NCBI GenBank assembly: GCA_964291625.2
Contig: OZ220089.1
Location: forward strand, 3,488,001-3,552,000
Direction of reading: 5' to 3'
Length of the DNA stretch: 64,000 bases
Source: Candidatus Latescibacterota bacterium
Lineage (GTDB): Bacteria; Latescibacterota; UBA2968; UBA8231
Shown: piece after piece, positions 1,328 to 60,254 of the stretch
Layout of the letters: each line of letters begins with the position of its first letter
Numbering within the stretch: position 1 is the stretch's first letter
The notes under the pieces: model-generated
What the model was told of the DNA's origin: nothing
Database searches by the model: none
What the model saw: only the letters and a program-made list of their open reading frames with translations
Made by a program: the position numbers and the translations under genes

Positions 1328-2224
1328 CTACCTGAGGCTGGCCTTGATCCGCCCCCAGGAGGACGGCTCCACGGCGGAAACGTCGTCGTAGCTGGATGGA
1401 TCCTCTCCAGCCCCTACCAGCAGGCCGTCGACGAAGAAATCGGCGAAGCTGAAGACCCCAACCCTGTCGCTCAACCACTGAAGGTCTATGGGCCCCAATC
1501 CGTCACTGTACTCGGTGGCGTCGTTGTCGATCGTGTTGATGGCAAAGCCGATAACCTTCCCCGGATACAGTATCGAGGCTTTGGAGGCGGCCTCGTCGTC
1601 GTAGACGAGGTCGTCGAAGGGGGTCACCATCAGCTCGGTGACCGTCGTGGCGGGGGTGACGCCGAGCACCCCGCCACCGCCGGCGGCGTACGGCTCCCTC
1701 ACGGCCCACTCGCTGGCCCCGTCATAGGCCACGTGTCGGCCCTCCGCCGTCTCGGCGATCGCCAGCCAGTGCTGGGCCTGGCGGTTGTTCTGGGGCTTGG
1801 CCTCCCTTTCAAACAGGTAGCGTCCGCCGGAATGATCGCCGTCAACCATGAAGCTGAAAGAAGAGTCCCAGCGGTTCATCGCTGGGAACCCCCACTCGTT
1901 GACCTCTCCCGCATAGTTGTTGTGGTAGATGTCATCGAAGCGCTCCATGGCGACCCAGAGGGTACCGCTTCGCCGGTGCCAGCCCAGCCAGAAGCGGTTG
2001 TCGCAGTTTGTTGGATCGTAGGTAGAGTCCGGGTAGTAGAAGTCGGCGCCTGTCAGCGACGGCTCCCCGAGGATGTCGATCCAGTCTTCGACGCTGCCGT
2101 CGGTCAGGTCGATGCGGTCCAGATCCTCGTCGAGGAGCTCGTAGAAGGGGTAGATCTCCTCGCCGATGTGGCCGTGGGCGCTGGTGGCAAGAAGTGCTAG
2201 CAGGATCATAGGGGAAAGACGCAA
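1328..2224 (-). CDS. Secreted CBM9/DOMON-like protein with C-terminal SAVEPSSWGRIKA tag (paralog 1)
   Basis: TTG start with GGGAGGAG RBS; signal peptide ending AHG/H; IDLTDGSVEDW, WVAMERFDD, DGDHSGG and GKVIGF motifs; closest to 59339-60220. Confidence 0.85.
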   Translation of the reverse strand: MRLSPMILLALLATSAHGHIGEEIYPFYELLDEDLDRIDLTDGSVEDWIDILGEPSLTGADFYYPDSTYDPTNCDNRFWLGWHRRSGTLWVAMERFDDIYHNNYAGEVNEWGFPAMNRWDSSFSFMVDGDHSGGRYLFEREAKPQNNRQAQHWLAIAETAEGRHVAYDGASEWAVREPYAAGGGGVLGVTPATTVTELMVTPFDDLVYDDEAASKASILYPGKVIGFAINTIDNDATEYSDGLGPIDLQWLSDRVGVFSFADFFVDGLLVGAGEDPSSYDDVSAVEPSSWGRIKASLR

Positions 2225-2325
2225 GGTGCTCCTCCCATGGAAGGATGGTACCCGGCAACAACGAAGAAGAGGGGGGCGTTGTTCCAGAGCACACGGGATG
2301 TTTCTCGGGATCCCAAGAGGAAGGC

Positions 2326-3258
2326 TCAGGGGCGCACGGGGAGGGCGGCCTTGATACGCCCCCAGGAGGACGGCTCCACGGCGGAGACATCGTCGTAGCG
2401 GGAGGGGTCTTCCCCGGCGCCGACGAGCAGGCCGTCGACGAAGTGGCTGGAGAAACGGTTCACGGAGAGTTCCAAGGGCGTGAGCAGGTAGGCGGTGGAA
2501 GAGACAAAGGGAGGTTCCTCGTCAGCGTCGTAGAGCCAGAGATCGAAACCGATGGTCTTGCCCGGGTACAGCTCCGAGGCTTCGGAAACGCCCTCGTCGT
2601 TGTAGACGAGGGCGTCGAAGGGCGTCACCTTGACTTCGAAGACCCAGGTCGCCGGGGTGCGGCCGACGGCGCCGCCTCCGGCGGCTGCGTACGGGTCCTC
2701 CGTGAGCCACTCGCCGCTCCCGCTGAAGCGAACGAAGTGGTCCCCCGCCGGGTCGATCGGCATCCAGTACTTCTGGGCCTGGCGAAAGTTCAACAGATCC
2801 AACTCTTCCTCGGTATGGTCGCCGGCAGGGAACCTGCGATACCGACCACCGGAGTGATCTCCGTCAATGAAAAACTCCATGCAGGCGTCCCATGCCCAGC
2901 AGTAGTTTGCTGTTTCCTCTTCGTCTCCGAGGGCCCCTTCGTAGCGGTCATCGAAGGCCTCCACGGCGACCCAGATGGTACTGCTGTTCCCGTGCCAGGC
3001 GAGCCAGACGCGGACATCCAGGGTCGTGGGATCGCTGGGCCAGCTCTCCGAGCCCCTCCAGAAATCGGAGGTGACCAGGGACGGCTCCCCGATGACCTCG
3101 AGCCAGTCCTCGACGCTGCCGTCCGTCAGGTCGATCCGGTGCAGGTCTTCGTCGAGCAACTCGTAGAAGGGGTAGATCTCGTCGCCGACGTGGGCGTGGG
3201 TGATGCTGGAGGGAAGCAAGGCAAACAGCAACAGCGAGCGAATCGTTCTTGGTCGCAC
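2326..3258 (-). CDS. Secreted CBM9/DOMON-like protein with SAVEPSSWGRIKA tag (paralog 2, most divergent)
   Basis: GTG 3258 with AAGGAG RBS; signal peptide; same conserved motifs and tail as paralog 1. Confidence 0.85.
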   Translation of the reverse strand: MRPRTIRSLLLFALLPSSITHAHVGDEIYPFYELLDEDLHRIDLTDGSVEDWLEVIGEPSLVTSDFWRGSESWPSDPTTLDVRVWLAWHGNSSTIWVAVEAFDDRYEGALGDEEETANYCWAWDACMEFFIDGDHSGGRYRRFPAGDHTEEELDLLNFRQAQKYWMPIDPAGDHFVRFSGSGEWLTEDPYAAAGGGAVGRTPATWVFEVKVTPFDALVYNDEGVSEASELYPGKTIGFDLWLYDADEEPPFVSSTAYLLTPLELSVNRFSSHFVDGLLVGAGEDPSRYDDVSAVEPSSWGRIKAALPVRP

Positions 3259-3287
3259 AATGCTATCTCCTTCGTGAGAGAATGTGA

Positions 3288-3491
3288 CTACCGACCTCTG
3301 GGAGCAGGAAAGAGCCAACCCTCTCGGATCTCCTTCTCCATGAAGGACGGTAGGTCGCCTGGAACGGCAGCCCACTGACCCAAGGTAACATCTACACCGT
3401 CGCCTCGAAGGCGGGTAGCTAATCCGAGAACCCAGCATTTGTGGTGGTCACTATCCCATGAGTAAGAAACAAAGGCTCTTGGTGTCCTCAT
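3288..3491 (-). pseudogene. Truncated SEFIR/TIR-domain protein (N-terminal ~55 aa only)
   Basis: PRAFVSYSWDSDHHKCWVLGLATRLRGDGVDVTLGQW...PGDLPSFME matches the typical bacterial SEFIR/TIR start; ends after 67 aa. Confidence 0.75.
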
Positions 3492-3638
3492 CTCGTTGAT
3501 GGTCCTTACTGCTCGTGGGTGTGAATCGTGGTGTCATGTGAGCCCTGCGGGATGTAGCCCGAGGTTGCCTATTTCACCAAGCGTCCAAGGTCAAATGGGC
3601 GTGGGAACCCTTCGGTAGGATCCCATGGCTCCGCCCCC

Positions 3639-4724
3639 TCACCCCTCGCCGAACAGCTCCAGCTGGTCCTGCCCCTGCCGGCGGAACCGGTCCACCGCCA
3701 GTGCGGGCGCCGGCCGGTCCAGCCCGGCCTTCCTCTTGGCGATCCGGAAGAACCGGCTCACCAGCTCCGCCAGTTCCCCCTCGCCGCGCATGCGGTGGCC
3801 GTAGCGCGCGTCCGATAGCTGGCCCCCCCGCACCGCCTCGAGCCGGTGCACGACCTTGCTGGCGCGGTCGGGGTAGTGGCGCTCGAGCCAGTCCAGGAAC
3901 AGGGGGCGCACGGCCCCGGGCAGGCGCACCAGGATGTAGTGGGCCCAGCGCGCCCCCCGGGCCGCCGCCGCTTCCAGGATGGCGGGGGCCTCCGAGTCGT
4001 TGAGCCCCGGGATCAGAGGCGCCACGTTGACCCCCGCCGGCACCCCGGCCCGGGACAGCTCCTCGAACGCCTGCAGGCGCCGCTCCGGCCGCGAGGTGCG
4101 CGGCTCCATGGCCGCCGTGAGCCGGCGGTCGAGGCTGGTGATCGACAGGGTCACGTGAACCAGGTCGAGGGCCGCCATTCTCTCCAGGATGTCGAGGTCG
4201 CGCGTCACCAGGTGGTTCTTGGTGATCAGGCTCACGGGGTTGCGGAACCTGAGGAACACCTCCAGGCACCGCCGCGTGAGCTGCAGCCGCCGCTCCACCG
4301 GCTGGTAGCAGTCGGTGTTGCCCGACAGGGCCACCACTTGGGGCTGCCACGACCTCTTGCGCAGGGCCGCCTCCAGCAGCTCCGGGGCCTGCTCCTTGAC
4401 CAGGATCCTGGTCTCGAAGTCGAGCCCGGCCGAGAACCCCAGGTACTCGTGGGTCGGCCGAGCGTAGCAGTAGACGCAGCCGTGCTCGCAGCCCCGGTAG
4501 GGGTTGAGGCTGAAGCGGAAGCCCACGTCCGGCGAGTCGTTCTCGGCCAGGATGGAGCGGCTGGCGTCGATCAGGTAGCTGGTGGGGACACGCTCCTCGA
4601 AGCCCTCCTCGCCGGGCTCGGCCGGGTCGGGCTCCAGATACAGGGGCTCGAAGCGGTTGGGGGTGTTGAAGCCGGCGGCGCGGCCCCTCTTGCCGGGAGG
4701 CCGGGGCGCGGGTGGGTCGGGCAT
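3639..4724 (-). CDS. PA0069/Rv2578c-family (SplB-like) radical SAM DNA-repair protein
   Basis: NPYRGCEHGCVYCYAR (CxxxCxxC), NTDCYQP, MEPRTS, APLIPGLND, VRLP, C-terminal QLELF. Confidence 0.93.
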   Translation of the reverse strand: MPDPPAPRPPGKRGRAAGFNTPNRFEPLYLEPDPAEPGEEGFEERVPTSYLIDASRSILAENDSPDVGFRFSLNPYRGCEHGCVYCYARPTHEYLGFSAGLDFETRILVKEQAPELLEAALRKRSWQPQVVALSGNTDCYQPVERRLQLTRRCLEVFLRFRNPVSLITKNHLVTRDLDILERMAALDLVHVTLSITSLDRRLTAAMEPRTSRPERRLQAFEELSRAGVPAGVNVAPLIPGLNDSEAPAILEAAAARGARWAHYILVRLPGAVRPLFLDWLERHYPDRASKVVHRLEAVRGGQLSDARYGHRMRGEGELAELVSRFFRIAKRKAGLDRPAPALAVDRFRRQGQDQLELFGEG

Positions 4725-4759
4725 GGGGGCGGACTGCCTTTGTCGGGCACCGGAACAAG

Positions 4760-4801
4760 TGAATATATGTGCAGTATATATCCAAGGCCCGCCCGACGCA
4801 A
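4760..4801 (-). promoter_or_regulatory. Sigma70-type promoter TTGCGT-17-TATACT with overlapping palindromic operator TGCACATATATTCA (candidate SOS box)
   Basis: -35 at 4796-4801, -10 at 4773-4778, 14-bp imperfect palindrome at 4760-4773; AT-rich patch in GC-rich DNA. Confidence 0.65.
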
Positions 4802-4831
4802 CGCCCGGCCTTGGTCAACCCGGTACAGGCC

Positions 4832-5551
4832 TCACTCTTCTCTGCAAGTCTGCACAGGTCTCGTTGCGTTGTCCCTCAATGGCCAGGGAGCATACGGGAT
4901 CGGCAGCAGGGCCGAAGCCGACTCGTAACCCACGTCCGGGATGGTTGGCTCCAGGGCCCTTGCGCGAGCATGGGCCTCCAACGCCTTACGAGGCCGTCCA
5001 CTGCGGTTCAGCAAGCATCCCAGGCTCAAGTGACCGAGAATCCATGTCGAATCAGCCGCGACTGCCTGGAGGAGCATCCCCTCTGCTCGTTCCAGGTCAC
5101 CTGACTCCACGAGGTGATAGGCCAGGGCATACTGGACGAAGAAGTAGGAGGAGTCCTGGCTGCTGAACTGGGTACCGACATCGACCGCCTCCTCGAATCT
5201 CGACAGACGAAGCAGGGCGATTGCCTTGAAGCTCAGGACACGAGAGTCATGTGGTTTGATCTCCAGCGCCGCATCGAAGGAGGCGAGGGCCCCCTCGTAG
5301 TCGCCTTGGGTCCCCAAGGAATATCCTCGGTAGAAGTGAGAATCGGAGTCTCGCGGACGTAACTCGACAATCTTCTCGAAGTACTCGGCCGCTGCTTCGT
5401 AGTCACCATCCTGATAGGCCTCGCTGGCAGGACCCCAGTAGTCGAAGAGAGATGGCACGAGATACAGGTATCCGATGCAAAGGAGCATGCCGCCGGCATA
5501 GGCGCAGACCAATGTTGCTGTCACTTTCGGGCTGTATCGCGGCCTGCTCAT
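4832..5551 (-). CDS. Membrane-anchored TPR-repeat protein
   Basis: ATG 5551 overlaps upstream stop; N-terminal TM; repeats such as GDYEAAAEYFEKIVELRP and GDYEGALASFDAALEIKP. Confidence 0.8.
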   Translation of the reverse strand: MSRPRYSPKVTATLVCAYAGGMLLCIGYLYLVPSLFDYWGPASEAYQDGDYEAAAEYFEKIVELRPRDSDSHFYRGYSLGTQGDYEGALASFDAALEIKPHDSRVLSFKAIALLRLSRFEEAVDVGTQFSSQDSSYFFVQYALAYHLVESGDLERAEGMLLQAVAADSTWILGHLSLGCLLNRSGRPRKALEAHARARALEPTIPDVGYESASALLPIPYAPWPLRDNATRPVQTCREE

Positions 5552-6273
5552 GCGGGGGGGAGGTGTCTGAACTCGGTCAAGAGAATCTGGAGAGGGAGGC
5601 TTGAGAGGTTTGTGGTCCCGTGAGCAATGATGGGGAACGCCAGAGACCGGGTCCTCTCGTAGGAGAACGCAAAGACCCCTCCGGAGAGAAAGTGAAGGAA
5701 CGTGGTGTCCGTCCAGCCATGTGCAAGGGCGAACAGGGATGATGACAGGAGCACACTGGGGGCACAAGCGCAATGCCGCCTCAGCCAGGAGTAGAGAAGG
5801 CCTCGGAAGAAGAACTCCTCGAAGATGGGTGTTACCAGGACACCGTGGAGACACGTGGCGAGCAGATGTGCCGCGGTGGCCTCTCTGCTCAGGTGCCACA
5901 CATAGCTGTCGCCGCCAATGAATCCCAGATAGATCCCTGCCTTCATGGCTGTGAGGGTTACCCCACAGAGGGCGGCGGGAAGAACGAACTCCATGAAGCG
6001 GCAGGGTACCAGGCCGGTGACCTTCTCCACATTGCACTTGTACCGCCCCGCGCAGAAAACGCCGATCTCGACCATCAGGGCGAGGTAGGCGATATGCACC
6101 CATGCAAGTTTCGCTATCAGGAAATCCGTTGCGCGACTGGGATAGGCCGCATGCAGAGCCCGGAGTGCCTGTTCGAATCCGGCTACCTGGAGCAGCAAGA
6201 GGACGGCGCAGAGGACCAGGAAGCCGATCCCCCAGGGAACATCGAATCCCGGCTTCCGGCTGACGCCGGGCAC
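5548..6273 (-). CDS. CPBP (Abi/CAAX) family intramembrane glutamic protease
   Basis: PIFEEFFFRG, FALAH and AHGTTN motifs; multiple TM segments; start uncertain. Confidence 0.88.
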   Translation of the reverse strand: MPGVSRKPGFDVPWGIGFLVLCAVLLLLQVAGFEQALRALHAAYPSRATDFLIAKLAWVHIAYLALMVEIGVFCAGRYKCNVEKVTGLVPCRFMEFVLPAALCGVTLTAMKAGIYLGFIGGDSYVWHLSREATAAHLLATCLHGVLVTPIFEEFFFRGLLYSWLRRHCACAPSVLLSSSLFALAHGWTDTTFLHFLSGGVFAFSYERTRSLAFPIIAHGTTNLSSLPLQILLTEFRHLPPA

Positions 6274-6309
6274 CTTGCGGCGCTCCCCCGCCCCCGGGAG
6301 GGGGTGGGC

Positions 6310-6462
6310 TTACGGCTCTCTCCGCCGGGCGATCATGGCCCGGATCATGTCGGCCACGTCGCCGAACCCCCGCAGGGCGACGACGGCCACGGTGCCGAAG
6401 AAGAAGGCGCAGGCCAGCAAAAAGACGTAGCTCCAGATCTCGATCCAGGTGGCAGATTCCAT
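6310..6462 (-). CDS. Small 50-aa membrane protein downstream of the SSS transporter
   Basis: Manual translation MESATWIEIWSYVFLLACAFFFGTVAVVALRGFGDVADMIRAMIARRREP; starts 4 nt after SSS stop, GGAG RBS. Confidence 0.75.
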   Translation of the reverse strand: MESATWIEIWSYVFLLACAFFFGTVAVVALRGFGDVADMIRAMIARRREP

Positions 6463-6466
6463 CGGC

Positions 6467-8032
6467 TCACTCCATGTCGCTGAAGTCGATGTGGCGGGGC
6501 GGGTACTTCTTCTGCGTCAGCAGCGAGCCCACGATCATGCCCAGGCCCCCGAGGATCAGGCTCGAGAAGTTGGTCAGGTTCGAGTTCTCCACGAAGCCGC
6601 GCAGGGCCTCGGGCACCAGGTCGGGGAAGAAGCTCATGACCAGGAAGTTGAGAGGCCCGGTGGCGCCCAGGACCAGGGCGCAGTAGGCGCCGACGCGGTT
6701 GGCCTTCTTCCAGTAGAGGCCCAGGACCACGGTGCCCACGGTGCCGGCGAAGTAGATGGTGCCGGTGAGGTACATGAACTTCATCGCCGTCTCCGGCAGG
6801 CGGTCGATGAAGAAGATGCCGAACAGCGCCAGCAGCACGGCCAGGCAGATGATGATCGCCCGCGTCCAGTAGATCTCCTCGCGGCTGCTCAGCCCGCCCC
6901 AGGTGTCGTCGCCGGTGCGCTGCTGGTCGCTGCCGGCGCGCATCGCCTTGATCGGCGAGATGACGTCGCGCACGATGACGCCGCTCCAGGCCAGCAGGTA
7001 GGAGTCGTGGGTCGACATGAAGGCGGCGAACATGCCCGCCAACAGCAGCCCCGCGGCGCCGGCGGGCAGGATCTGGCCGAGCATCTCGGGCACCGCCGAC
7101 TGGCCGTCCTGGGCGTAGGCGCCGGCGTACGAGGGCAGCCGCGTCCAGGCGAAGGCGGCGGCCCCCCAGAACATGGGCACCAAGGCGCGGCCGGCCGAGG
7201 TCAGGCCCTGGATCCAGAAGATGCGCCGCGCCACGCGGGCGTCCTCGGTCGACAGGGGCCGCGACATCTCCGGCTGCCAGACGATGCCCACGAAGGAGAC
7301 GCACAGGAAGTAGATGATGAAGTACCAGCCGAAGGAGGGGTTGCCGATGGGGTCGAAGGCCGCGGCCCCCTTGTGCGTCTCCAGCGAGCTGACGATGGAG
7401 CTGAAGCCCAGGTCCGGGTGATTGAGGATGAAGAAGGTGCCGAGGAAGAAACCGAGGGTGAGCAGCACGAACTGGGCGAAGTCGGTGAGCACCACCGAGA
7501 CCATGCCGCCCATGAGGGTGTAGAACACGACGATGATCAGCAGGGCGATCATCACCGGGTTCGTCCAGCTCTCCGGCATGCCGGTGAAGCCGACGACGAA
7601 CTTGGAGCCGAGGATGGGGAAGAGGCTCATGTTGAGGGTGCCGGCCAGACCGAGGATGCAGCCGCCGAGGAGGCGCACGCCCCGCGAGTACTTGAGCTCG
7701 TACATCTCCGGCACCGTCATGATGCGCAGGTGCCGCAGCCGGCTCACGAGGAAGCCCGTCTTGCCGATGACGATGTGGGCGCCGGTGGCCATCACCCCGA
7801 GGATGAAGGGCGAGAAGCCGTTGACGAAGCCCTCCTCGGCGAAATACATGACCGTCACCAGGCCGAGGCCGGTGGAGACCATGGTGGCCACGGCCGTGTG
7901 GGTCTTCAGGCTGCGGCCGGCGACGAGGAAGTCGGAGATGCCCCGGATCGCCGAGCGCGCCAGCAGGCCGGCGGTGATCGTGCCGCCCACGTAGACGAGG
8001 ACGATCAGGAAGTCGAACCAGTGCAGATGCAT
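6467..8032 (-). CDS. Sodium:solute symporter (SSS) family transporter
   Basis: DFLVAGRSL, YTLMGGMVSVVLTDFAQ, AAFMST, LGLYWKKAN; many TM helices. Confidence 0.93.
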   Translation of the reverse strand: MHLHWFDFLIVLVYVGGTITAGLLARSAIRGISDFLVAGRSLKTHTAVATMVSTGLGLVTVMYFAEEGFVNGFSPFILGVMATGAHIVIGKTGFLVSRLRHLRIMTVPEMYELKYSRGVRLLGGCILGLAGTLNMSLFPILGSKFVVGFTGMPESWTNPVMIALLIIVVFYTLMGGMVSVVLTDFAQFVLLTLGFFLGTFFILNHPDLGFSSIVSSLETHKGAAAFDPIGNPSFGWYFIIYFLCVSFVGIVWQPEMSRPLSTEDARVARRIFWIQGLTSAGRALVPMFWGAAAFAWTRLPSYAGAYAQDGQSAVPEMLGQILPAGAAGLLLAGMFAAFMSTHDSYLLAWSGVIVRDVISPIKAMRAGSDQQRTGDDTWGGLSSREEIYWTRAIIICLAVLLALFGIFFIDRLPETAMKFMYLTGTIYFAGTVGTVVLGLYWKKANRVGAYCALVLGATGPLNFLVMSFFPDLVPEALRGFVENSNLTNFSSLILGGLGMIVGSLLTQKKYPPRHIDFSDME

Positions 8033-8710: not shown

Positions 8711-8746
8711 GCGCGCTTCCCGACACGGATCACAGATACTACCCGG

Positions 8747-8843
8747 CTACCTCAGGGCGGCCTTGATCCTCGCCCGGGAGGACGGCTCCACCGCGGAGTT
8801 TTCGCCACCGTCATGGCGGGATGGATGCTCCTCCCTGGCGGCG
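8747..8843 (-). pseudogene. Orphan 3' tail of the SWGRIKA family
   Basis: Translates AAREEHPSRHDGGENSAVEPSSRARIKAALR*; nucleotide match to 57432-57520 including the TAGCCGG after the stop. Confidence 0.8.
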
Positions 8844-29343: not shown

Positions 29344-32064
29344 TCAGAACAGACCCGAGTACTTGAAGGTGAGGATGTAGTCGCGGGTGCCCTCGCGCCG
29401 GGCCCTGGGACGGGAGTCGTAGATGTCCCAGGCGAAGCCGAAGAGAAAGCGGTCCTTGTAGAGGGACAGGGCCAGCCCGAGGGAGACGGCGATGGAGTTG
29501 TCCGTGGAGAGCGCCTCCAGAACGTTGCCGATGGCGGTGAGGTGGACGCCGGATACGGCGGGGTGCTCGGCGTTGTGCCAGCCCGCGAAGGCGATGCCCG
29601 GCAGACCGATGAGCCGCTCCGTCTTGCCCTTCACGAGGCGGCCCTCTTCGTCGGTGCGGTCGCGCCCCGGGCGGATGGCGAGGAAGGAGACCAGGGGCTT
29701 GGCCTCGAAGGCCCACTTCCAGCCGCCGGACTCCAGGATCTGGGAGATCGACTGCTCCGGCCCTCCGGCGTGGCTCCGGGTGGTGAGCCGCAGGCGCACC
29801 CGTTTGATGCCGGTGTCGGTCAGGCGGAGGTTGAGGTCCTCCACGTGGACGCTGTCCTCGCTGTCGGCGTAGATCTGCACCCGGGCCTGCCGGGGACCGC
29901 CCTTGGGGTCGTAGTTCTCGTCGAGCTGGACCCACTCCACGTCGACCCGGCGCCCCACCAGGGCCTGCCGCAGGGTGTCGGGAAGGTCGATCCGCATGTC
30001 GATCCGGGTGCCGTCGCGCACCACCAGGGGCGTGGGGGTCCAGGGCACCTCCAGCGGCCGGGCTCCGGACTTGCCCGTGGCCAGCACGGAGACGATGGAC
30101 GCCAGGTCGACGACGCCCAGGGCCCCCCGTCCGCGGATCTTGATGGGCTGCGCCTTGTCGCGCACGTCGTTGCTGATCAGCAGGATCTGGCCGAAGCGCT
30201 CCCCCAGGGCCTCCGGGGAGAAGTGGATGTTCAGGGTCGTCGACTCCCCGGGGTCGAGGGAGAAGGCCGAGGGCTCCACGCGGGCCTCGCCGGTGAGGGC
30301 GCTGGCCTCCACCTGCAGGGCGGTGTCGCCGGAGTTGGTCGCCACCAGCGGCCGCTGGTCGCTCTCGCCGATGACGACGTGTCCGAAGTCGAGCACTCCG
30401 GACGGATGCAGCTCGATCTCGGCGGCGACGCCGGTGCCGGTGAGCAGCACCTCGAGGTTGGCGGCGCCGCCCTCCCAGAAGCCCTCGAGGCGCAGGGTGC
30501 CGCTCACGGGCCCGCGCGCCGAGGGCGCGAAGGTGACGCGCACCGGCAGCGAGCCCAGGCCGTTGCCGGGCAGCCGGTGTGCCCCCCCGTCGGGAGAGAC
30601 CTGCGTGAAGATGGTGAAGTCGTCGCTCGTGGAGTGGATGCGGCCGATGGAGAAGTCGGCGTTGCCGCCGTTGGTCAGCTCGATGATGCCGCTGCCGGAT
30701 TCGCCCACGGGAACCCGGCCGAAGTCGAAGGCCGTCGGCTTGAGCTGCAGAAAGCGGCCCGTCCCCTGCAGCTGCATCCGGCGGCGGCCGGCCTCGGTGT
30801 GGACCGACAGGGCGCCCTCGCGCAGGCCGACCTCCCGGGGGCGGAAGACCAGCTCCACGCGGCCGCTCTCCCCGGGGTTGAGCAGGAGCGTGCCGGTCTC
30901 CAGGTCGAACTCGGGGCCGCTGCCCTCCTCCAGCTCGAGGCGCACCAGGAAGGGGGTGCCGCCCCGGTTCCACATGAGCAGCGGCAACCGCGCCGGCTTG
31001 CCCAGGGGCACGCTGCCGAAGTCGATGGGAGAGCGGTCGAGGAGCTCCACGTGCGGCGGGCCGACCTGCCCCATGCCGGTGAGGGGGACCTCGAGGCGGC
31101 GGCGCTGCGGATCGTTGCTGGTCAGCAGGAGGGCGGCGCTGTCCGGCCCCTCGTAGCGCGGCCGGAAGCGGACTGCGACATCGCGCCGGGCCCCCGGCCC
31201 GAGCCGCAGGGGCGACTCTCCGCCCACCTCGAAGGCCTCGTCGGCCAGTTGCAGGGAGAGATCGAGATCGCCCCGACCCTGGTTGATCAGGGTGAGTCGG
31301 CGGCGGGAGGCCGCCCCCATCTCGACGGTCTCGAAGTCGATCCCCACCTCGGGCAGGGGGGAGACCGCCAGCCGCGGGGCCAGTCCCTCGCCGGCGAGGG
31401 GAACGGTCATGGCGGGCAGGTCCGCGGAGTGCACGTGCAGGCGGCCCCGGAAGGTCCCGTCGCCGGACGGGTTGAAGAGCACGCCGACCTCCGTGCGCGA
31501 GCCCGGCGCCAGAGGGCGGTCCGGGGCGCCCGCGAGCGAGAACGGCCCCGACGCGGGCTCGATGGAGAGGCTGTCGACGACCAGCTCCACGCCGCCGGGG
31601 TTCATCAGCTCCAGGGAGCGGCGCACGACCCGCCCCACCGGGGCCGGCCCGGCGTCGATCCCGGCCTCGGGGCCGGGACGCAGGCGCAGCCGCGGCCGCT
31701 CGACGGAAGCGGCGAGCCCGACGCGGGCCTGCTCGCTGCCGAAGAGCTCCCCGGTCTGCAGGGAGAGCTCGCCGGCGTGGGATCCGGTGTCAGCGGCGCT
31801 GAACTCGACGGTCAGGGAGCGGGTGGCGGCGGCCGGCAGATGGAGGGTGTCGGCGGCGACGGAGAATCCCTCGCCCTCGACCCGCAGATCGACCTCCAGG
31901 TCGTCGGCGCCGGTGTTGCGCACCGAGACCTCGAGGCGGCTGGTGCGGCCGGGCTTGAGGGCCCCGAAGTCGAGGCTGTCGGGCTGGACCTGGAGCGGCT
32001 GCGCGCCCAGCCCCGATGGGGGGAGCCACAGGGCGCCGGCGGCGAGGAGAAGGACGGCGCGCAT
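29344..32064 (-). CDS. Secreted protein with six ASH/choice-of-anchor-D Ig-like repeats and a beta-rich C-terminus
   Basis: ATG 32064, signal peptide; six repeats of (L/I)DFG...N(T/S/Q/R/P/G)G...F.P...G; ends YILTFKYSGLF. Confidence 0.8.
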   Translation of the reverse strand: MRAVLLLAAGALWLPPSGLGAQPLQVQPDSLDFGALKPGRTSRLEVSVRNTGADDLEVDLRVEGEGFSVAADTLHLPAAATRSLTVEFSAADTGSHAGELSLQTGELFGSEQARVGLAASVERPRLRLRPGPEAGIDAGPAPVGRVVRRSLELMNPGGVELVVDSLSIEPASGPFSLAGAPDRPLAPGSRTEVGVLFNPSGDGTFRGRLHVHSADLPAMTVPLAGEGLAPRLAVSPLPEVGIDFETVEMGAASRRRLTLINQGRGDLDLSLQLADEAFEVGGESPLRLGPGARRDVAVRFRPRYEGPDSAALLLTSNDPQRRRLEVPLTGMGQVGPPHVELLDRSPIDFGSVPLGKPARLPLLMWNRGGTPFLVRLELEEGSGPEFDLETGTLLLNPGESGRVELVFRPREVGLREGALSVHTEAGRRRMQLQGTGRFLQLKPTAFDFGRVPVGESGSGIIELTNGGNADFSIGRIHSTSDDFTIFTQVSPDGGAHRLPGNGLGSLPVRVTFAPSARGPVSGTLRLEGFWEGGAANLEVLLTGTGVAAEIELHPSGVLDFGHVVIGESDQRPLVATNSGDTALQVEASALTGEARVEPSAFSLDPGESTTLNIHFSPEALGERFGQILLISNDVRDKAQPIKIRGRGALGVVDLASIVSVLATGKSGARPLEVPWTPTPLVVRDGTRIDMRIDLPDTLRQALVGRRVDVEWVQLDENYDPKGGPRQARVQIYADSEDSVHVEDLNLRLTDTGIKRVRLRLTTRSHAGGPEQSISQILESGGWKWAFEAKPLVSFLAIRPGRDRTDEEGRLVKGKTERLIGLPGIAFAGWHNAEHPAVSGVHLTAIGNVLEALSTDNSIAVSLGLALSLYKDRFLFGFAWDIYDSRPRARREGTRDYILTFKYSGLF

Positions 32065-32191
32065 AAAAAAGAAAGAGCGACCAACCCACCAGAATGCCGG
32101 AAGAAACGTTGTCGAAGTTCCACATTCAAGAAGAGTGGAAAACTTCCAGCGGGGCAAACTGTGATGTGAGTTCAGGTCACTCTTTGCCCGC

Positions 32192-32220
32192 AAGGTAGAG
32201 GCGGAGGCTGTGGAAGTCAA
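32192..32220 (-). promoter_or_regulatory. Sigma70-type promoter TTGACT-17-TACCTT followed by a structured 5' leader
   Basis: -35 at 32215-32220, -10 at 32192-32197. Confidence 0.55.
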
Positions 32221-53519: not shown

Positions 53520-53525
53520 GGCGGC

Positions 53526-53825: not shown

Positions 53826-54220
53826 TCCACCGTGAAGGAGCCGCGGACCTCGCCGGGGCGGAGACGGCGGCCCACCATCCTCTTGAGGAACCCCTTCAGC
53901 AGCCGGCGCGTGCCCGGGACGAGGGCGGCGAAGCCGACGACGTCGGTGAGAAACCCGGGCGTCAGCAGCAGCAGTCCGCCCCCGAGGATCAGGGCCCCGT
54001 CGAAGATCTCGTCGCCGGGGAAGGAGCCGGCCCGCAGGGCCTCCTGAAGGCGCCAAAGGGCGCGCGTCCCCTGGGCCCGGGCAAGAAAGGCGCCGGCGGC
54101 CCCCGTGGCCAGGACCAGCGCCACCGTGGGCGTGACGCCGATGTGGGAGCCGATCTGTACGAGCAGGGCCAGCTCGATCACCGGCAGGAGGGCGAAGAGG
54201 AGGAACAAGCGGAAGAGCAT
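53822..54220 (-). CDS. fxsA: FxsA family membrane protein
   Basis: PVIEL, ARAQG, GGLLLLTPGFLTD.VG. Confidence 0.93.
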   Translation of the reverse strand: MLFRLFLLFALLPVIELALLVQIGSHIGVTPTVALVLATGAAGAFLARAQGTRALWRLQEALRAGSFPGDEIFDGALILGGGLLLLTPGFLTDVVGFAALVPGTRRLLKGFLKRMVGRRLRPGEVRGSFTVE

Positions 54221-54260
54221 GGTCCGCCAATATACCCGGGGGGGGAACGGGGTCGAGGCG
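54209..54260. repeat. 52-bp direct repeat, copy 1 (fxsA start and promoter)
   Basis: gcggaagagcatggtccgccaatatacccggggggggaacggggtcgaggcg; matches 54899-54950 with one mismatch. Confidence 0.97.
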
Positions 54261-54288
54261 GCGGCGCGGGCAAGCCCACCGCAGCGAG

Positions 54289-54786
54289 TCAGGGAGCGGA
54301 AGGGCCCAGGAGCACGTCGCGCAACTCCACCGCCAGAACCTTCCTCACCTCGTTCAGAGTGGTGCCTCGGTCGTAGGCGGTCTCTCTCATCTTCTGGAGA
54401 GTCTCCTCCGGGAACCGAGCGTCATCCTGGACGGACTCGAAGCATTGTTCCTGGATCTCGTACGGCGGCCGGTCCTGAATCTGCGGGGCCATCCCGGGCG
54501 CCGCTTCCCGGGCCCAGGCGCGGGCCCCGATGTCCTCGGAGATGGCCCGGCCCAGATCTGTCAATCGGAGTGGGCTTCCCCCGGATATGGTCGAGGAAGG
54601 CAGCTGGCGCAGCATCTCCTTGATGTCCCGGCGCATCTTCTGGATGTCCAGGCGAATCCCCTCGATGGCGTCGCCCACCGTGGCTCGGAAGGTGTTCATA
54701 CCGCCGATCCACAGACACAACTTGCAGAGCCCGCCGGTCGCGGCCACTCCTCCCACTACGTAGATCAAGGGATTGCCCCAGTCCAT
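54289..54786 (-). CDS. Hypothetical protein between the direct repeats
   Basis: ATG 54786 with AGGAG RBS; N-terminal TM, short coiled coil, SPLRLTDLG motif. Confidence 0.75.
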   Translation of the reverse strand: MDWGNPLIYVVGGVAATGGLCKLCLWIGGMNTFRATVGDAIEGIRLDIQKMRRDIKEMLRQLPSSTISGGSPLRLTDLGRAISEDIGARAWAREAAPGMAPQIQDRPPYEIQEQCFESVQDDARFPEETLQKMRETAYDRGTTLNEVRKVLAVELRDVLLGPSAP

Positions 54787-54898
54787 CGGACTCCTTCCTT
54801 CGCCGGTTACATCACCTTCGCGCCGCCAGGTGGCCCTCGTGAGGGGACGCCAGTCCCTTGGGCCCCCGGCCAACCAAGGCAATTGCCGTACCCGTCAG

Positions 54899-54950
54899 GC
54901 GGAAGAGCATGGTCCGCCAATATACCCGGGGGGTGAACGGGGTCGAGGCG
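54899..54950. repeat. 52-bp direct repeat, copy 2
   Basis: Identical to 54209-54260 except G>T at 54934; offset 690 bp. Confidence 0.97.
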
Positions 54951-54981
54951 AGCGGGCACGGCGATTGCGGTCCGCCTCCCC

Positions 54982-57421
54982 GTGCCCGCCCCGCCCGCCA
55001 GGAGACGCCCGGCCCTGTGGGTGGCCGCCGCCCTCGGCGCCGGGATCCTGACGGCCGACCAGCTCGCCCACGCGCCCTCCCTGTGGCTGGGCGCCGCCGC
55101 GGTCACGGGGGCGGCGGGCCTGGCGGGGTGCCTGACGGCGCGGGCCCCCCGCCTGACCTCGATCTGCCTGCTGGCGCTGGCCGCCTGCGCGGGAGGGTTC
55201 CGCTACCACCAGCACACACGGCTGTGGCCGCCGCACCACGTGTCCGGCTGCGAGAGCCTCGGCGAGCGCGGGGTCCTCGTGGGCCGGCTGGCAGGCGAGG
55301 CGGAGGAGAGCGCCGTCGAGGGGGAACGCCGGACGCGGCTCGTCCTGGAGGCCGAGGGCTGGGCACCCCGAGGAGGGCGACCCCCTCCATCTGACGGGAC
55401 GCGTGTGGGTGACCCTGCGCGGCTTCCGGCTTCCGGCCGGCGCCGGTGACCGCATCTGGCTGAAGACGCGCCTGAGGCGCCCCCAGCCGGCGCGCAACCC
55501 CGGGGCCTTCGACTTCCGCCGGTACCTCCACCTGCAGGGGGTGCACGCCTCGGCCTCCGCGTACCGGCGGGATCAACTGCAGCGCGTGGAGCCCCTGCCC
55601 GCCGCCTGGTGGCGCGAGAACGGCTGGTGCTGTCCCTTGCGGCGGCAGATGCGCGGCGCCCTCGAGGCCAACCTCTCCGGCCCTCCGGCGGGCCTGCTGC
55701 GGGGCATGCTGCTGGGGGAGAAGCACCGCATCCCCGCCGAGGTGGTGGACCGCTTCCGCCACACGGGGCTGGCCCACGCCCTGGTGATCAGCGGCCTCCA
55801 CGTCGGTCTCGTGGCCCTGTTCTTCTACACCGCCTTCCGGTTGGCCCGGGCCCCGCCGGGGGCCGCCTGCCTGGCCACAACCCTCGTCCTACTTCTCTAC
55901 GCGCTGGTCACCGACCTGCAGGCACCGGTGGTGCGCGCCTCGATCATGGCCGGGGTGGTGCTGGTGGGCCGCGCCATCGGACGCCGGGGCGAGGTCTACA
56001 ACTCCCTCGGCCTGGCGGCGGTCGTCATCCTCTGCCTGTGGCCGGCGAGCCTCCTCACCCTCTCCTTCCAGCTCTCCTTCGGCGCCACCCTCGCCATCGT
56101 CGCCCTCCACGGCCCTCTCATGTCGCTGTGGCCGCGGGCCTGGCGCGACGAGGACCACGCCCTGGGCAAGTGGGTGCTGGCGCCCCTGTGCGTCACCGTG
56201 GCGGCGCAACTGGGCACGGGACCCCTCATCGCCTGGCACTTCCAGCAGTTCGCGCCGGTCTCCCTGGCGGCCAACCTGGTCGTGGTGCCGCTCCTCGGGA
56301 TCGCCGTCTCCCTGGGGCTGCTGGCGGCTCTCACCGGGCCCTGGTGGCCCCTTGCAGGGGCCGTCTTCAACGGCGCCAACTACCTCGCCCTGAACGGTCT
56401 GATGGGCGCCGTGGACGCCTTCGCCGCTCTCCCCTTCGCCTCCCTGACGACACCGAAACCCTCGGCCCTCACCCTGGTCCTGGCGGCGTGGACCGCCGCT
56501 CTCCTCGCCTGGGGACCGGGGCGCCCCCGGGTGCGGGCGCTGCTGCTGATCACCCTGCTGGCGTGGGGCAATCTCCAGGTCTGGCCCCTGGTCCTGCGGG
56601 ACCGGGGGCTGGAGATCGTCTTCCTCGACGTGGGCCAGGGGGACGCCGCCTTCCTGCGCTTCCCCAACGGGCGCACGATGGTCATCGACGGCGGCCTCCG
56701 CAGCCGGCGTTCCGACTTCGGGGAGCGCGTCGTCGTCCCCTTCCTCAAGCATCGGGGAGTCACCCGGGTCGACGCGGTGGTCGCCTCCCATCCGCACTCC
56801 GACCACATCGGTGGGCTGGTGCACCTGCTGGAGCGGGTCGAGGTGGGCCACTTCCTCGACAGCGGCCAGGCCTACGACTCGTGGACGGCCCGCCGGCTGC
56901 GCCGGCTGATCGAGACGAGAGGGGTCGCCTACCACCGGGTCGCCGCCGGAGACAGCCTCGCCGGCCTCGGCGGCGTGGGCGCGGTGGTCCTGCACCCGAG
57001 GGCGGGATTCGTCGACGCCGTGGGCGGCTCTCCCCAAGGCCTGAACGACGGCTCGGTGGTGGTCCGCTTCGACTACGGGGAGACGCGGGTGCTGTTCACC
57101 GGCGACATCGAGGAGCCGTCGGAGCCGGCCCTGTTGGGGTGGGGGGAGGGCCTGCGTAGCGGCGTGCTGAAGGCGGCCCACCACGGGTCGCGCACCTCGT
57201 CGGGCCCGGCCTTCGTCGAGGCCGTGAGCCCGTCGGTCTGCGTCGTCTCCGTGGGCGCCTTCAACCGGTTCGGCCACCCGGCGCCGGGGGTGATGGCGCG
57301 GTTCCGGGAGGCCGGGGCCCGGGTCTACCGCACCGACGAGTGCGGGGCCGTGGTGGTGCGGGTGAGGAAGGAGGGTGGGGTCCTGGCGAGGGCGATGGTG
57401 GGAGAGGACTGTGCGCCGTGA
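54982..57421 (+). pseudogene. comEC: ComEC/Rec2 DNA uptake channel, split by a +1 frameshift near 55366-55369 (real or sequencing error)
   Basis: RNPGAFDF, ISGLHV, SFQLSF, DVGQGDA, HPHSDHIGG, KAAHHGS, YRTD; removing one C joins 54982-frame WAP to EEGDPLHLTGRVWVTLR. Confidence 0.9.
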
Positions 57422-57435
57422 GTCCGGCCGGCCGG

Positions 57436-58350
57436 CTACCTGAAGCTGGCCTTGATGCGCGCCCAGGAGGACGGCTCCACGGCGGAAACGTCGTCGTAGC
57501 GGGAAGGGTCTTCCCCGGCGCCGACGAGCAGGCCGTCGGAGAAGAGATCCGCGTTGATCATCTCTTGCCATTTGCCGGAGAGGGAAATCCTCACGTCGAC
57601 CGCTCCACTGCGATCATGGTCTCGCATGGACATCGAGAACCCGATGACCTTGCCGGGGTAGAGGTCGGAGGCCGTGGACGCCTCCTCGTCGTTGTAGATG
57701 AGGTCGTCGAAGGGAGTCAGCATGAACTCGGTGACCGAGGTCGCGGGACTCTCGCCGATGACCCCGCCCCCCGCCGCGGCATACGGCTCCCGGATCACCC
57801 AGTCGCTGGCGCCGTCGTAGTCCAGGATGTCGCCGTCGCCGGGCGCCTCGGCGATCGCCATCCACCGCTGCGCCTGACGGTGGTTCCACAGGACTTGGTC
57901 CGCTGTACACTCCTCGCAGTTGATCCCCAGCAGTTCGCCGTAGATCCCGCCGGTGTGGTCGCCGTCGACCATGAAGGCGATGCTGGAGTCCCAGCGGTGC
58001 ATCTCGTGGAGGCCGGCCCCGTCGTAGCGGTTGAGGTAGAGATCATCGAAGCGCTCCATAGCGACCCAGAGGGTACCGCTGCTCTCGTTCCAGGCGAGCC
58101 AGATGCGGAAGTCCAGGTTCGAGGGATCGTAGGCACCGAACAGCCAGAAGAAGTCGCTGGCCGTCAGGGAGGGGTCGCCGAGGACGTCGTACCAGTCCTC
58201 GACGCTGCCGTCGGTCAGGTCGATGCGGTCGAGATCTTCGTCGCGCAACTCGAAGAAGGGATAAATCTCGTCGCCCACGTGGGCGTAAGCGGCGGGGGGC
58301 GGGCCCAGGAGTGCGGCGAGGCCCAGCAGGGAGATGAGTCGAGTGTGCAT
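57436..58350 (-). CDS. Secreted CBM9/DOMON-like protein with SAVEPSSWARIKA tag (paralog 3)
   Basis: Signal peptide AYA/H; family motifs; CxxC loop (CEEC). Confidence 0.88.
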   Translation of the reverse strand: MHTRLISLLGLAALLGPPPAAYAHVGDEIYPFFELRDEDLDRIDLTDGSVEDWYDVLGDPSLTASDFFWLFGAYDPSNLDFRIWLAWNESSGTLWVAMERFDDLYLNRYDGAGLHEMHRWDSSIAFMVDGDHTGGIYGELLGINCEECTADQVLWNHRQAQRWMAIAEAPGDGDILDYDGASDWVIREPYAAAGGGVIGESPATSVTEFMLTPFDDLIYNDEEASTASDLYPGKVIGFSMSMRDHDRSGAVDVRISLSGKWQEMINADLFSDGLLVGAGEDPSRYDDVSAVEPSSWARIKASFR

Positions 58351-58368
58351 GGGGTGTTCCTGCTCAGG

Positions 58369-59283
58369 CTATTCCAGCGCGGCCTTGATCCGCCCCCAGG
58401 AGGACGGCTCGACGGCGGAAACGTCGTCGTAGCTGGATGGCTCCTCTCCGGCGCCGACGAGCAGGCCGTCGGAAAAGAGATCCGCGTTGATCATCACGCC
58501 CGACCAGCGGGTGAGCGCCACAATCACATCGAAGGCCTCACCGCCGTCATAGTCCCACATGGACATCGAGAATCCGATGACCTTGCCAGGGAACAGTTGA
58601 GAGGCCTCGGACCTTTCCTCGTCGTTGTAGATGAGATCGTCGAAGGGCGTCAACATGAACTCGGTGACCGAGGTCGCGGGGCTCTCGCCGATGACGCCGC
58701 CCCCCGCCGCGGCATAGGGCTCCCGGATCACCCAGTCGCTGGCGCCGTCGTAGTCGAGAATGTCGCCGCCGCCGGGGGCCTCGGCGATCGCCATCCACCG
58801 TTGCGCCTGGCGGTGGTTCCCCAGAACCTGCTCCGGTGTGCATTGCTCGCAGCCGATGCCGAGCAACTCCCCGTATTTCCCGGCGGTGTGGTCACCGTCG
58901 ACCATGAAAGCGATGCTGGAGTCCCAGGTCACCATCTCGTGGAGTCCGGCCCCGTCGTAGCGGTTGAGGTAGAGATCGTCGAAGCGCTCCATGGCGACCC
59001 AGAGGGTACCGCTACCCTGGTGCCAGGCGAGCCAGATGCGGAAGTCCAGGTCCGAGAGATCGTACGAATCGAAGAGCCAGAAGAAGTCGCTGGCCGTCAG
59101 GGAGGGCTCGCCGATGACCTCGAGCCAATCCTCGACGCTACCGTCGGTCAGGTCGATCTGGTCCAGATCTTCGTCGAGGAGCTCGTAGAAGGGGTAGATC
59201 TGGTGGCCGACGTGGGCGTGGGCGGAGCCGGCGAGACCCAGGAACTGGACCAAGGTCAGGAGAGCAACGAGCATCGTCGGCAT
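58369..59283 (-). CDS. Secreted CBM9/DOMON-like protein with SAVEPSSWGRIKA tag (paralog 4)
   Basis: ATG 59283 with AAGGAG RBS; signal peptide AHA/H; close paralog of 57436-58350; CEQC loop. Confidence 0.88.
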   Translation of the reverse strand: MPTMLVALLTLVQFLGLAGSAHAHVGHQIYPFYELLDEDLDQIDLTDGSVEDWLEVIGEPSLTASDFFWLFDSYDLSDLDFRIWLAWHQGSGTLWVAMERFDDLYLNRYDGAGLHEMVTWDSSIAFMVDGDHTAGKYGELLGIGCEQCTPEQVLGNHRQAQRWMAIAEAPGGGDILDYDGASDWVIREPYAAAGGGVIGESPATSVTEFMLTPFDDLIYNDEERSEASQLFPGKVIGFSMSMWDYDGGEAFDVIVALTRWSGVMINADLFSDGLLVGAGEEPSSYDDVSAVEPSSWGRIKAALE

Positions 59284-59338
59284 GGTGTATCTCCTTGGTG
59301 AAGCGGAGTCCCGCGAGTGGGTCTGCGCTCTCGACCGG

Positions 59339-60254
59339 CTACTTGAAACTGGCCTTGATCCGCCCCCAGGAGGACGGCACGACGGCGGAGACATCGTCGT
59401 AGCGGGAGGGGTCTTCTCCGGCGCCGAGGAGCAGGCCGTCGACGAAGAGATCGGCGAAGCGGACGGCCGCCCCCCTGTCGCCGAGCCACTGAAGGTCTGC
59501 CGGCCCCAATCCGTCGGCATACTCGGTGGCGTCGTTATCGATCGTGCTGATGGTGAAGCCGATGACCTTCCCCGGATACAGTACGGAGGCTTTCGAGGCG
59601 GCCTCGTCGTCGTAGACGAGGTCGTCGAAGGGGGTCACCTTCAGCTCGGTGACCGTGGTCACGGGGGTGGCGCCGAGCACGCCGCCCCCGGCCGCGGCGT
59701 ACGGCTCCCTCACGGCCCACTCGCTGGCGCCGTCATAGGCCACTTGTCCGCCCTCCGCCGTCTCGGCGATCGCCATCCAGTGCTGGGCCTGGCGGTTGTT
59801 CTGGAGCTTGGCCTCCTCACCGAACAGGTACCGGCCGCCAGAGTGATCGCCGTCGACCACGAAGCTGAAGTAGGAGTCCCAGCGGTTCATCGTGGAGAAT
59901 CCCGACTGGTCAATCTCCCCTGCATAGTTGTTGTGATAGATGTCATCGAAGCGTTCCATGGCGACCCAGAGGGTCCCGCTTCGTCGGTGCCAGCCAAGCC
60001 AGAAACGGTTGTCGCAGTTCGTTGGATCGTAGCTGGAGTACGGGTAGTAGAAGTCGGCGGCCGTCAGTGAGGGCTCACCGAGGACGTCGTGCCAGTCCTC
60101 GACGCTGCCGTCGGTCAGGTCAATGCGGTCGAGATCTTCGTCGAGAAGCTCGTAGAAGGGGTAGATCTCGTCGCCGATGTGGGCGTGGGCGCCGGGTGCG
60201 ATCGCCAGGACCGGCGCCATGGCCAGGGTCAGCAGGCCGATGGCAGGTCCGCAT
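59339..60254 (-). CDS. Secreted CBM9/DOMON-like protein with SAVVPSSWGRIKA tag (paralog 5; +1 indel in signal peptide)
   Basis: RBS-preceded ATG 60254 is one base out of frame with the ORF starting at 60220; close paralog of 1328-2224. Confidence 0.82.

Follow-up and report, generated by a model that had tools for sequence, protein, structure and literature searches.

Five paralogous genes whose products share constant ends and differ in their middle parts raise the question whether a bacterium keeps a cassette-shuffled repertoire of surface proteins or an ordinary gene family with functionally constrained ends. The genes encode exported proteins resembling carbohydrate-binding module family 9 (CBM9) and are located, together with an orphan gene end, in a stretch of 64,000 nt (hereafter the window; contig positions 3488001-3552000) of a Candidatus Latescibacterota genome of 5.9 Mb with 69.5% G+C (hereafter G0). 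The original prediction, made from the window alone, held that the conserved ends allow recombination to swap variable ligand-binding cores. We favour another reading, to which we assign a probability of roughly 0.7: the genes would represent a birth-and-death tandem family with occasional unequal crossover and conversion, the ends of which are kept by function, and no programmed cassettes would be involved. The paralogs (W1 to W5), the orphan tail, and the conserved N-terminal and C-terminal blocks (N block and C block, given for W3) are situated as follows:

1328-2224, minus strand: W1, CBM9-like paralog of subtype a, 298 aa, TTG start, signal peptide ending in AHG with H as the next residue
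2326-3258, minus strand: W2, CBM9-like paralog of subtype b, 310 aa, GTG start
8747-8800, minus strand: orphan tail, last 17 codons and stop of a lost paralog, W changed to R
57436-58350, minus strand: W3, CBM9-like paralog of subtype c, 304 aa; signal peptide 1-23, mature His24, CBM9 beta-sandwich approximately 28-276, acidic linker 277-287, tail 288-304
57436-57537, minus strand: C block of W3, residues 272-304 and stop, comprising the last beta-strand DGLLVG, the linker AGEDPSRYDD, and the tail VSAVEPSSWARIKASFR
58150-58281, minus strand: N block of W3, residues 24-67, comprising the mature N-terminal His, the first beta-strand, and the IDLTDGSVEDW hallmark
58369-59283, minus strand: W4, CBM9-like paralog of subtype c, 304 aa, 18 nt upstream of W3
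59339-60254, minus strand: W5, CBM9-like paralog of subtype a, with the in-frame open reading frame (ORF) at 59339-60220

As predicted, five minus-strand ORFs and the orphan tail are present at these places, and the paralogs carry signal peptides. Positions 8800-8747 of the minus strand translate to NSAVEPSSRARIKAALR followed by a stop. In case of W5 the ORF is real, but its predicted end at 60254 did not hold, since the ATG at 60254-60252, located behind a GGAGG, belongs to another frame than the gene body (916 nt); a start at the only in-frame ATG, situated at 60220, leaves just 13 residues ahead of the cleavage site. Either a recent frameshift or an assembly or base-call error in the signal-peptide region would account for this. 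Adjacent copies are spaced by 18, 55, and 101 nt, and these short gaps suggest co-transcription of neighbouring copies. Aligned end to end, the other four proteins are 56, 61, 61, and 83% identical to W1. The proposed grouping, with W1 next to W5, W3 next to W4, and W2 alone, is borne out by nucleotide identities of 85.8% and 83.1% for the two pairs and of at most 66% between W2 and the other four. The ends are indeed the most conserved parts, but calling them near-identical at the nucleotide level was an overstatement, as identities among the five amount to 82-89% for the N block and 83-89% for the C block, compared to 57-88% for the core.

The window holds only a part of the family. A search of the whole genome with W3, by which the paralog count called for by the original prediction was obtained, gave 22 matches in G0, 11 of which reach E <= 4e-60 and are referred to as close copies: five in the window, four just left of it (3471k, 3481k, 3482k, and 3485k), and two at 548k and 578k. 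The nearest G0 copy to W2 is among those outside the window. The approximately 11 distant copies are 24-33% identical, and one of them is frameshifted; this member (contig positions 176508-177550) is situated beside an intact one and has its tail in another frame due to a shift near the 3' end. Three related genomes (G1, G2, and G3) were compared with G0; their flanks are approximately 80-95% identical, those of G1 only approximately 80%, and the numbers of matches found in the three, in no particular order, are 8, 13, and 16. From these genomes 33 full-length genes (13, 8, and 12) were taken in addition to 11 of G0. The related loci are labelled “Candidatus Latescibacterota bacterium” (two assemblies) and “Gemmatimonadaceae bacterium” (one assembly). 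A family profile built from 19 copies and searched against 1.84 billion proteins retrieved 2470 cluster representatives at E <= 1e-3 and 431 at E <= 1e-30, with records labelled mostly as Latescibacterota and Gemmatimonadota. With the best 19 candidates per genome scored (of up to 199), a match at E <= 1e-20 occurs in at least 67 of 121 genomes of the phylum, in all 40 genomes of the window's own taxonomic family, and in none of the 29 genomes of a sister family. Judged from sequence, these predicted proteins are a large unannotated family of exported, single-domain proteins of approximately 300 aa with a divergent CBM9 beta-sandwich.

If cassettes were shuffled in a programmed way or at high frequency, the ends would act as recombination handles by which cores are swapped rapidly, giving a variable surface repertoire in the population. 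Cassette systems of this kind underlie antigenic variation of Neisseria pilE/pilS, Borrelia vlsE, and Anaplasma msp2, and the likeness consists in a variable centre between conserved flanks, with junctions in the flanks. In contrast to these systems, complete genes are found here, a single expression site and promoterless truncated cassettes are lacking, and the subtypes are stable between species. Except for W5 with its 5' frameshift, all 11 close copies possess their own start, signal peptide, and stop; no silent, truncated, or promoterless cassettes were observed, and the 17-codon relic is the sole fragment in the window. A Pfam scan that covered 36 ORFs of the window revealed no recombinase, invertase, or reverse transcriptase, inverted repeats are weak (70-89% complementary), and Rfam and tRNA scans of the window remained empty. 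In the core tree of 43 genes, from which one gene with a frameshifted tail was left out, each of the seven subtypes a to g forms a monophyletic group (support 0.75-1.0) with members in at least two and up to all four genomes, i.e., the subtypes are stable across genomes with flanks as diverged as given above.

Homogenisation of the ends within genomes was not observed either. For pairs of different subtypes, drawn from 37 genes of six subtypes, the proportion of synonymous differences (pS) within genomes (134 pairs) and between genomes (422 pairs) is 0.261 and 0.265 for the N block, 0.349 and 0.348 for the C block, and 0.446 in both cases for the core; since values within and between genomes are nearly the same, homogenisation of the ends within genomes is not taking place. 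Considering G0 and G1 alone, the ends are likewise no closer within than between genomes. In a GENECONV-like run test of the ten close G0 copies, only three of 45 pairs pass the Bonferroni correction, with tracts of at most 47 nt located in conserved blocks, in which a cluster of slowly evolving sites may look like conversion; long tracts of excess identity were not found in G0 by this test.

The original prediction would have been at odds with ends as diverged at synonymous sites as the core. This is the case for the C block, and for the N block it is so only half way. Codon differences were counted only where the amino acid is identical (820 pairs of 41 genes from four genomes), and the C block gave values of 0.13, 0.14, 0.26, 0.27, 0.33, 0.41, and 0.53 against 0.04, 0.07, 0.17, 0.25, 0.35, 0.43, and 0.53 for the core, while the N block tracks the core at first and then stays flat at 0.18-0.28. 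Between subtypes, synonymous divergence (dS) among the ten close G0 copies (37 pairs) amounts to 0.42 for the N block, 0.62 for the C block, and 0.88 for the core.

Traces of recombination do exist at the ends. In tests by region, carried out on the same 37 genes (four genes of the divergent subtype e, two outliers, and the frameshifted gene being left out), the nearest neighbour of each core half belongs to the same subtype in 100% of cases, and the distances of the two halves are correlated at 0.85. The nearest neighbour shares the core subtype for only 35% of the genes in the 22-codon signal-peptide region, 45% in the C block plus tail, and 69% in the N block, compared to a mean of 16% and a maximum of 0.40-0.43 for shuffled labels. 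Each core behaves as one linkage unit, and 5' ends and tails are combined with it anew, a pattern that speaks for shuffling. A further point of this kind is given by a gene of G2 (G2_L057_5), which occupies the slot held by W4 and W3 in G0 and carries a subtype-b core, where G0 has subtype c, between a W4-like signal peptide and a W3-like tail. Compared to W2, this gene shows 0-5 differences per 60 bases over approximately 240 core codons (approximately 14 in 720), but 32 of 60 bases differ in the bin of the signal peptide, and the two final bins contain 6 and 10 differences; the signal peptides belong to two sequence families, and the tails differ as well (AALPVRP in W2, ASFR in the G2 gene).

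Up to approximately codon 300, the copy at 548k matches the first of two tandem genes in G3 almost completely, and from there on it is nearer to the second (1-3 versus 5-6 mismatches per bin). As this site holds one gene in G0 and two in both G2 and G3, the copy is by its mismatch pattern a footprint of unequal crossover. Mosaic cores occur as well, in which identical and diverged stretches alternate in some pairs, e.g., G3_L054_4 and G3_L068_8 of subtype f. At the site of the orphan tail, G1 holds a whole gene.

Copy number differences were also seen in metagenome runs. The four runs compared consist of assembled Logan contigs, in which minority variants are invisible and stretches that are not covered are uninformative; short “skip” joints with sides of 20-30 nt, which connect equivalent paralog positions, are untrustworthy. 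In run X24 two contigs join 57400 to 60341, i.e., the ComEC side to the methyltransferase side with 20 other letters in between and no paralog, and in run X2 one contig joins 57399 to 59335 and keeps one paralog at the W5 position. These joins point to relatives that lack all or most of the right array; as joins across the array they, too, fit shuffling, as does a ratio of nonsynonymous to synonymous proportions (pN/pS) of 1.28 in loop 260-267. Most runs that hold pieces of the window (region 56800-60800 compared) are labelled as sponge metagenome. In G3 (loci L023, L033, and L048) a single ten-gene array is located between an A24-like gene and the ComEC flank, and the segment of approximately 50 kb that separates the two G0 arrays (G0 contig 3486000-3549000) is situated elsewhere on the same G3 contig. 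This suggests a large rearrangement between the arrays in G3, unless a short-read contig was misjoined.

Given complete genes, stable subtypes, ends that are not homogenised within genomes, and no recombinase among the window ORFs scanned, we regard programmed shuffling as very improbable, and the cassette-shuffled repertoire of the original prediction is not upheld. What stands of it is that conserved ends permit recombination, as junctions fall in the ends and signal peptides and tails are reassorted; this does not amount to a demonstrated system for generating diversity. That a multigene family recombines here in the ordinary way, without indications of programming, is part of the reading that we prefer and would share its probability.

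At the other extreme, plain divergence under purifying selection, with no exchange at all, would attribute the apparent chimeras to fast-evolving signal peptides, weak signal, or assembly errors. Trees of the N and C blocks are poorly resolved, both blocks being short and conserved, pN/pS of the signal peptide is 0.84-1.05, and the possible short-read origin of G3 points in the same direction. On the other hand, W2 and G2_L057_5 stem from two megabase-contig assemblies and combine near-identical cores with signal peptides of different families and different tails, the fusion at 548k coincides with a single G0 gene where the relatives hold two, mismatch profiles are mosaic inside cores, and a relic lies where G1 has a whole gene. 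Plain divergence is therefore considered improbable; by comparison of sequences, signal peptides and tails are reassorted relative to the cores, and clear chimeras exist.

Several observations weigh against a birth-and-death family with functionally kept ends. The synonymous divergence of the N block is about half that of the core in distant pairs (0.25-0.28 versus 0.43-0.53), and this plateau makes old conversion in the N block or selection at the DNA or RNA level possible. The discordance of N and C blocks is partly lack of signal, the blocks being short. G3 resembles a short-read assembly, in which chimeric joins are possible. Finally, the two aromatic clamp positions of the CBM9 protein TmCBM9-2 do not appear to be conserved across the family (see below), which concerns the assumed ligand.

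Birth-and-death evolution with unequal crossing-over in tandem arrays is a general concept for multigene families, and copy-number differences, chimeric genes, relics, and trans-specific subtypes make it the category that fits the evidence. In the mechanism that we propose, each protein would consist of four parts, i.e., a Sec-type signal peptide, a His-started N block, a loop-variable sandwich, and a linker with the SAVE..SWGRIKA tail. Family size would change as genes are duplicated, in tandem or with larger segments, and deleted. Unequal crossovers and conversion tracts would end in the N and C blocks because these are the longest stretches of high identity. Over evolutionary time, signal peptides and tails would be re-paired with other cores, genes fused or deleted, relics left behind, and the subtypes of slots changed.

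The constancy of the ends would be explained by purifying selection on functional blocks. The N block comprises the mature N-terminus, the first strand, and the IDLTDGSVEDW hallmark, and the C block the last sandwich strand (DGLLVG), an acidic linker, and a 17-residue tail, SAVE..SWGRIKA. Considering 130 stand-alone representatives, each standing for one cluster at 50% identity, the first mature position is His in 113 cases, Gln in eight, and another residue in nine; the His of the DGDH motif is kept in 119, the tail Trp in 126, and the tail Lys in 125. Both blocks are kept in family members of other organisms at identities of 50% or less, and the tail occurs on 36 unrelated proteins (see below), which argues against conservation because of, or for the sake of, recombination. 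That the N block is fold core and the tail a tag belongs to the preferred reading and is given the same likelihood.

The tail recurs far beyond the family. The motif [ST]W[GA]x[IVLM]K was found 69 times in the six-frame translation of the genome, 58 times within 15 residues of a stop, compared to 4, 3, and 0 for scrambled motifs; at most 14 residues follow it. The family profile matches 22 of the 58 tail ORFs, and the remaining 36 are unrelated exported proteins. Of these, 20 were scanned and comprise five secreted Cache proteins, one with Temptin_C, one with PD40 repeats, two with sub-threshold matches, and 11 for which no Pfam match was obtained. In a crude test, a signal-peptide-like start was present in 17 of 20 gene-like tail ORFs compared to 924 of 2826 other gene-like ORFs. 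Of six matches to orthologs of the Cache proteins that were read, five, from a genome of the same genus and from a further genus, carry the tail motif at their end, with two reads overlapping in a single gene; the Cache match from a more distant family lacks it.

Within the best 150 family matches, the tail is present on 115 of 130 stand-alone proteins and on one of 14 longer ones. Among 12 long homologs scanned, 11 lack the tail and end in FlgD_ig or Por_Secre_tail, the C-terminal sorting domain of the type IX secretion system (T9SS), which in turn is absent from the five window proteins. G0 has 144 matches to FlgD_ig and 19 to Por_Secre_tail; in addition to the 58 tail ORFs, proteins of the T9SS cargo type thus apparently number well above one hundred. 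Due to its presence on 36 unrelated exported proteins and its replacement by the T9SS domain in long homologs, the tail is probably a sorting or anchoring tag. From this distribution, it most likely functions as a sorting, retention, or docking signal used instead of the T9SS C-terminal domain. A clustering of tail genes next to genes of T9SS cargo was considered and rejected, as 4 of 58 are located within 3 kb compared to 5.5 expected at random.

In being a short C-terminal element on many unrelated exported proteins, the tail resembles PEP-CTERM/exosortase, MYXO-CTERM, JDVT-CTERM, and Synerg-CTERM (with CPBP-type proteases) as well as T9SS signals, and with the T9SS domain it alternates on homologs. 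It differs from these signals in being only approximately 17 residues long and in lacking a transmembrane helix and an Ig-like domain. The signature of PEP-CTERM and MYXO-CTERM, in which the motif precedes a transmembrane helix and a basic cluster, is not seen, nor is an NCBIfam match: NCBIfam gave no match on the five window proteins (E <= 1) or on 17 other tail proteins (E <= 0.1), and no Pfam or NCBIfam model covers the tail. In the literature searched, a description of the motif was not found, and papers on sorting signals or T9SS in these phyla proved unrelated.

A cognate enzyme for the tail was not identified. The genes considered in this and the following respects, and one further gene of the window, are:

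1-1130, minus strand: two TlpA/ResA-like thioredoxin-fold genes (CxxC), directly downstream of W1
3639-4724: PA0069-type radical SAM gene
5548-6273, minus strand: CPBP/Rce1-like intramembrane protease gene, inside the left array region
29344-32220, minus strand: gene of a 958-aa protein consisting of HYDIN/ASH/Cep192-type Ig-like domains (Pfam E 1e-46), a type frequently termed eukaryote-like

The CPBP/Rce1-like gene, with a weak, sub-threshold match to MrtJ/MrtS-type CTERM-sorting proteases (43 bits, cut-off 75), is a candidate for a tail-processing enzyme and is mentioned as a lead only. The radical SAM neighbour was dropped as a tail-modifying enzyme because it belongs to the widespread PA0069 family (E 9e-144). 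A 234-aa ORF outside the window, at 3484407-3485111, resembles the PA0069-type radical SAM gene at its beginning and the A24-like peptidase gene at its end, and has the appearance of a chimeric relic that a segmental rearrangement between the arrays left behind. Two TlpA/ResA-like redoxin genes and a gene for an A24-family (prepilin-peptidase-like) membrane protein make up a unit that is found twice, at 3472921-3475105 and 3486787-3489100, each time followed by a CBM9-like paralog, and related genomes show the same neighbours.

The CBM9/DOMON-like fold proposed originally proved right at the level of the fold, although sequence models are of little help: scans of the five proteins with Pfam and NCBIfam at E <= 1 returned nothing beyond two chance-level matches, and CBM9_1 (PF06452) matched none of them at this threshold. 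AlphaFold2 modelled full-length W3 with a predicted local distance difference test score (pLDDT) of 80 and the mature protein (134 sequences) with a pLDDT of 91.9 and a predicted template modelling score of 0.89; in the mature model the first ten residues have a mean pLDDT of 91 and the last 20 residues of 47-67. In Foldseek, CBM9 structures lead (7nwo, 7nwn, and 1i82) with an E of 5e-9. VIA-align against 48,161 chains placed 1i82 (TmCBM9-2) first, with Z 18.6 and a root-mean-square deviation of 2.5 A over 187 of 189 residues, followed by 4jpq (Z 16.3), NxrC (10.9), and ethylbenzene dehydrogenase (EBDH) gamma (10.1), and then a drop to 7.7. Look-alike clusters in the Atlas contain CBM9_1 in 13-37% of their members, with Latescibacterota, Gemmatimonadota, and Poribacteria as the commonest taxa. 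Searched against PDB sequences, the family profile reached 1i82 only at E 0.011; it aligns the WLAW...FDD strands, the VDGDH loop (to IDENNH), IGF..D.D, and the last strand FVDGLL (to FGNLRL), and the IDG..W start likewise aligns with CBM9. According to the model, the fold is a CBM9 beta-sandwich.

The same beta-sandwich and aligned motifs are thus shared with TmCBM9-2 of Thermotoga maritima Xyn10A (1I82/1I8U) and CkCBM9.3 (7NWN/7NWO) of PF06452. The window proteins differ from these in being stand-alone exported proteins instead of xylanase modules, in having approximately 65 extra loop residues, and in adding a mature N-terminal His and the C-terminal tail. Members of the same fold class are also BACUNI_03838 (4JPQ, putatively carbohydrate-binding), NxrC (7B04), EBDH gamma (2IVF), and the cytochrome of cellobiose dehydrogenase (4QI6, Z 5.5). 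In contrast to DOMON and EB_dh heme modules, conserved heme ligands were not seen, and the likeness to these modules is well below that to CBM9.

According to PMC8280721, Trp71 and Trp175 of TmCBM9-2 form the sugar clamp. In the 130 representatives, the column aligned with Trp175 contains W in 32, F in 12, and Y in nine, and that aligned with Trp71 W in nine, the loops aligning poorly; all five window copies keep W at the first of these positions. As the clamp columns do not appear to be conserved, canonical CBM9 sugar binding is uncertain and a guess from the fold only. The proposed role is extracellular ligand binding, of glycans if the fold is a guide, with a ligand that would differ by subtype. 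Internal variation is indeed located in loops, as the original prediction had it: within subtypes (110 pairs) pN/pS is 0.15-0.55 over most of the protein and rises to 0.7-0.9 in loop 140-155 and 0.7-1.3 in 236-267, of which residues 252-267 align with the Trp175-bearing loop of TmCBM9-2. The subtypes may well differ in ligand. Exclusively in subtypes c and d, a variable loop contains a CxxC pair (NCEEC, NCEQC, YCEHC, or NCHDC; W3 residues 144-148), which may relate to the adjoining thiol:disulfide oxidoreductase genes. Literature on Latescibacter, sponges, and CBM9, including PMC6081418 and PMC12993501, yielded general mentions only.

The proteins might not be lectins but binders of a metal or cofactor, in which case the mature N-terminal His and the DGDH His would bind copper or another metal in the manner of a histidine brace, or heme would be bound as in DOMON and EB_dh proteins, with the TlpA-like redoxins serving maturation. 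An N-terminal His binds copper in lytic polysaccharide monooxygenases, CopC, YcnI, and PmoB. The high conservation of both His residues in the representatives counted above, the ordered N-terminus of the model, the two TlpA/ResA-like genes next to W1 in a duplicated unit, the apparent lack of conservation in the clamp columns, and NxrC and EBDH gamma as structural neighbours agree with metal or cofactor binding. However, Gln or another residue replaces the first His in 17 representatives, the columns that are invariant or nearly so show, aside from the DGDH His, no Met/Lys/His pair suited as heme ligands, CBM9 matches far better than the heme relatives do (Z 18.6 versus 10-11), and DGDH aligns with DENNH of TmCBM9-2, so that its His may be structural. 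Metal or cofactor binding is on balance unlikely.

A wider conjecture, which we hold to be doubtful, would combine both aspects of the ends. In Latescibacterota and allied phyla, the tail could serve as a so far undescribed C-terminal signal for sorting or attachment that displays His-started CBM9-like binders, Cache proteins, and beta-propeller proteins on or near the surface, and the N and C blocks could in addition act as recombination handles re-slotting cores between arrays and strains, so that the ligands bound in the host or the environment would vary across the population.

With the preferred reading of a birth-and-death family, the apparent “cassette repertoire” becomes a testable and mostly ordinary picture. 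New with respect to the libraries searched are a very large family of stand-alone exported proteins with CBM9 fold and a mature N-terminal His, and a short C-terminal tag on dozens of unrelated exported proteins that alternates with the T9SS domain. If the N-terminal His indeed binds metal, the family may not be lectins at all, and if the tag sorts proteins, it would point to a hitherto undescribed route of export or anchoring in these poorly studied, uncultured phyla.

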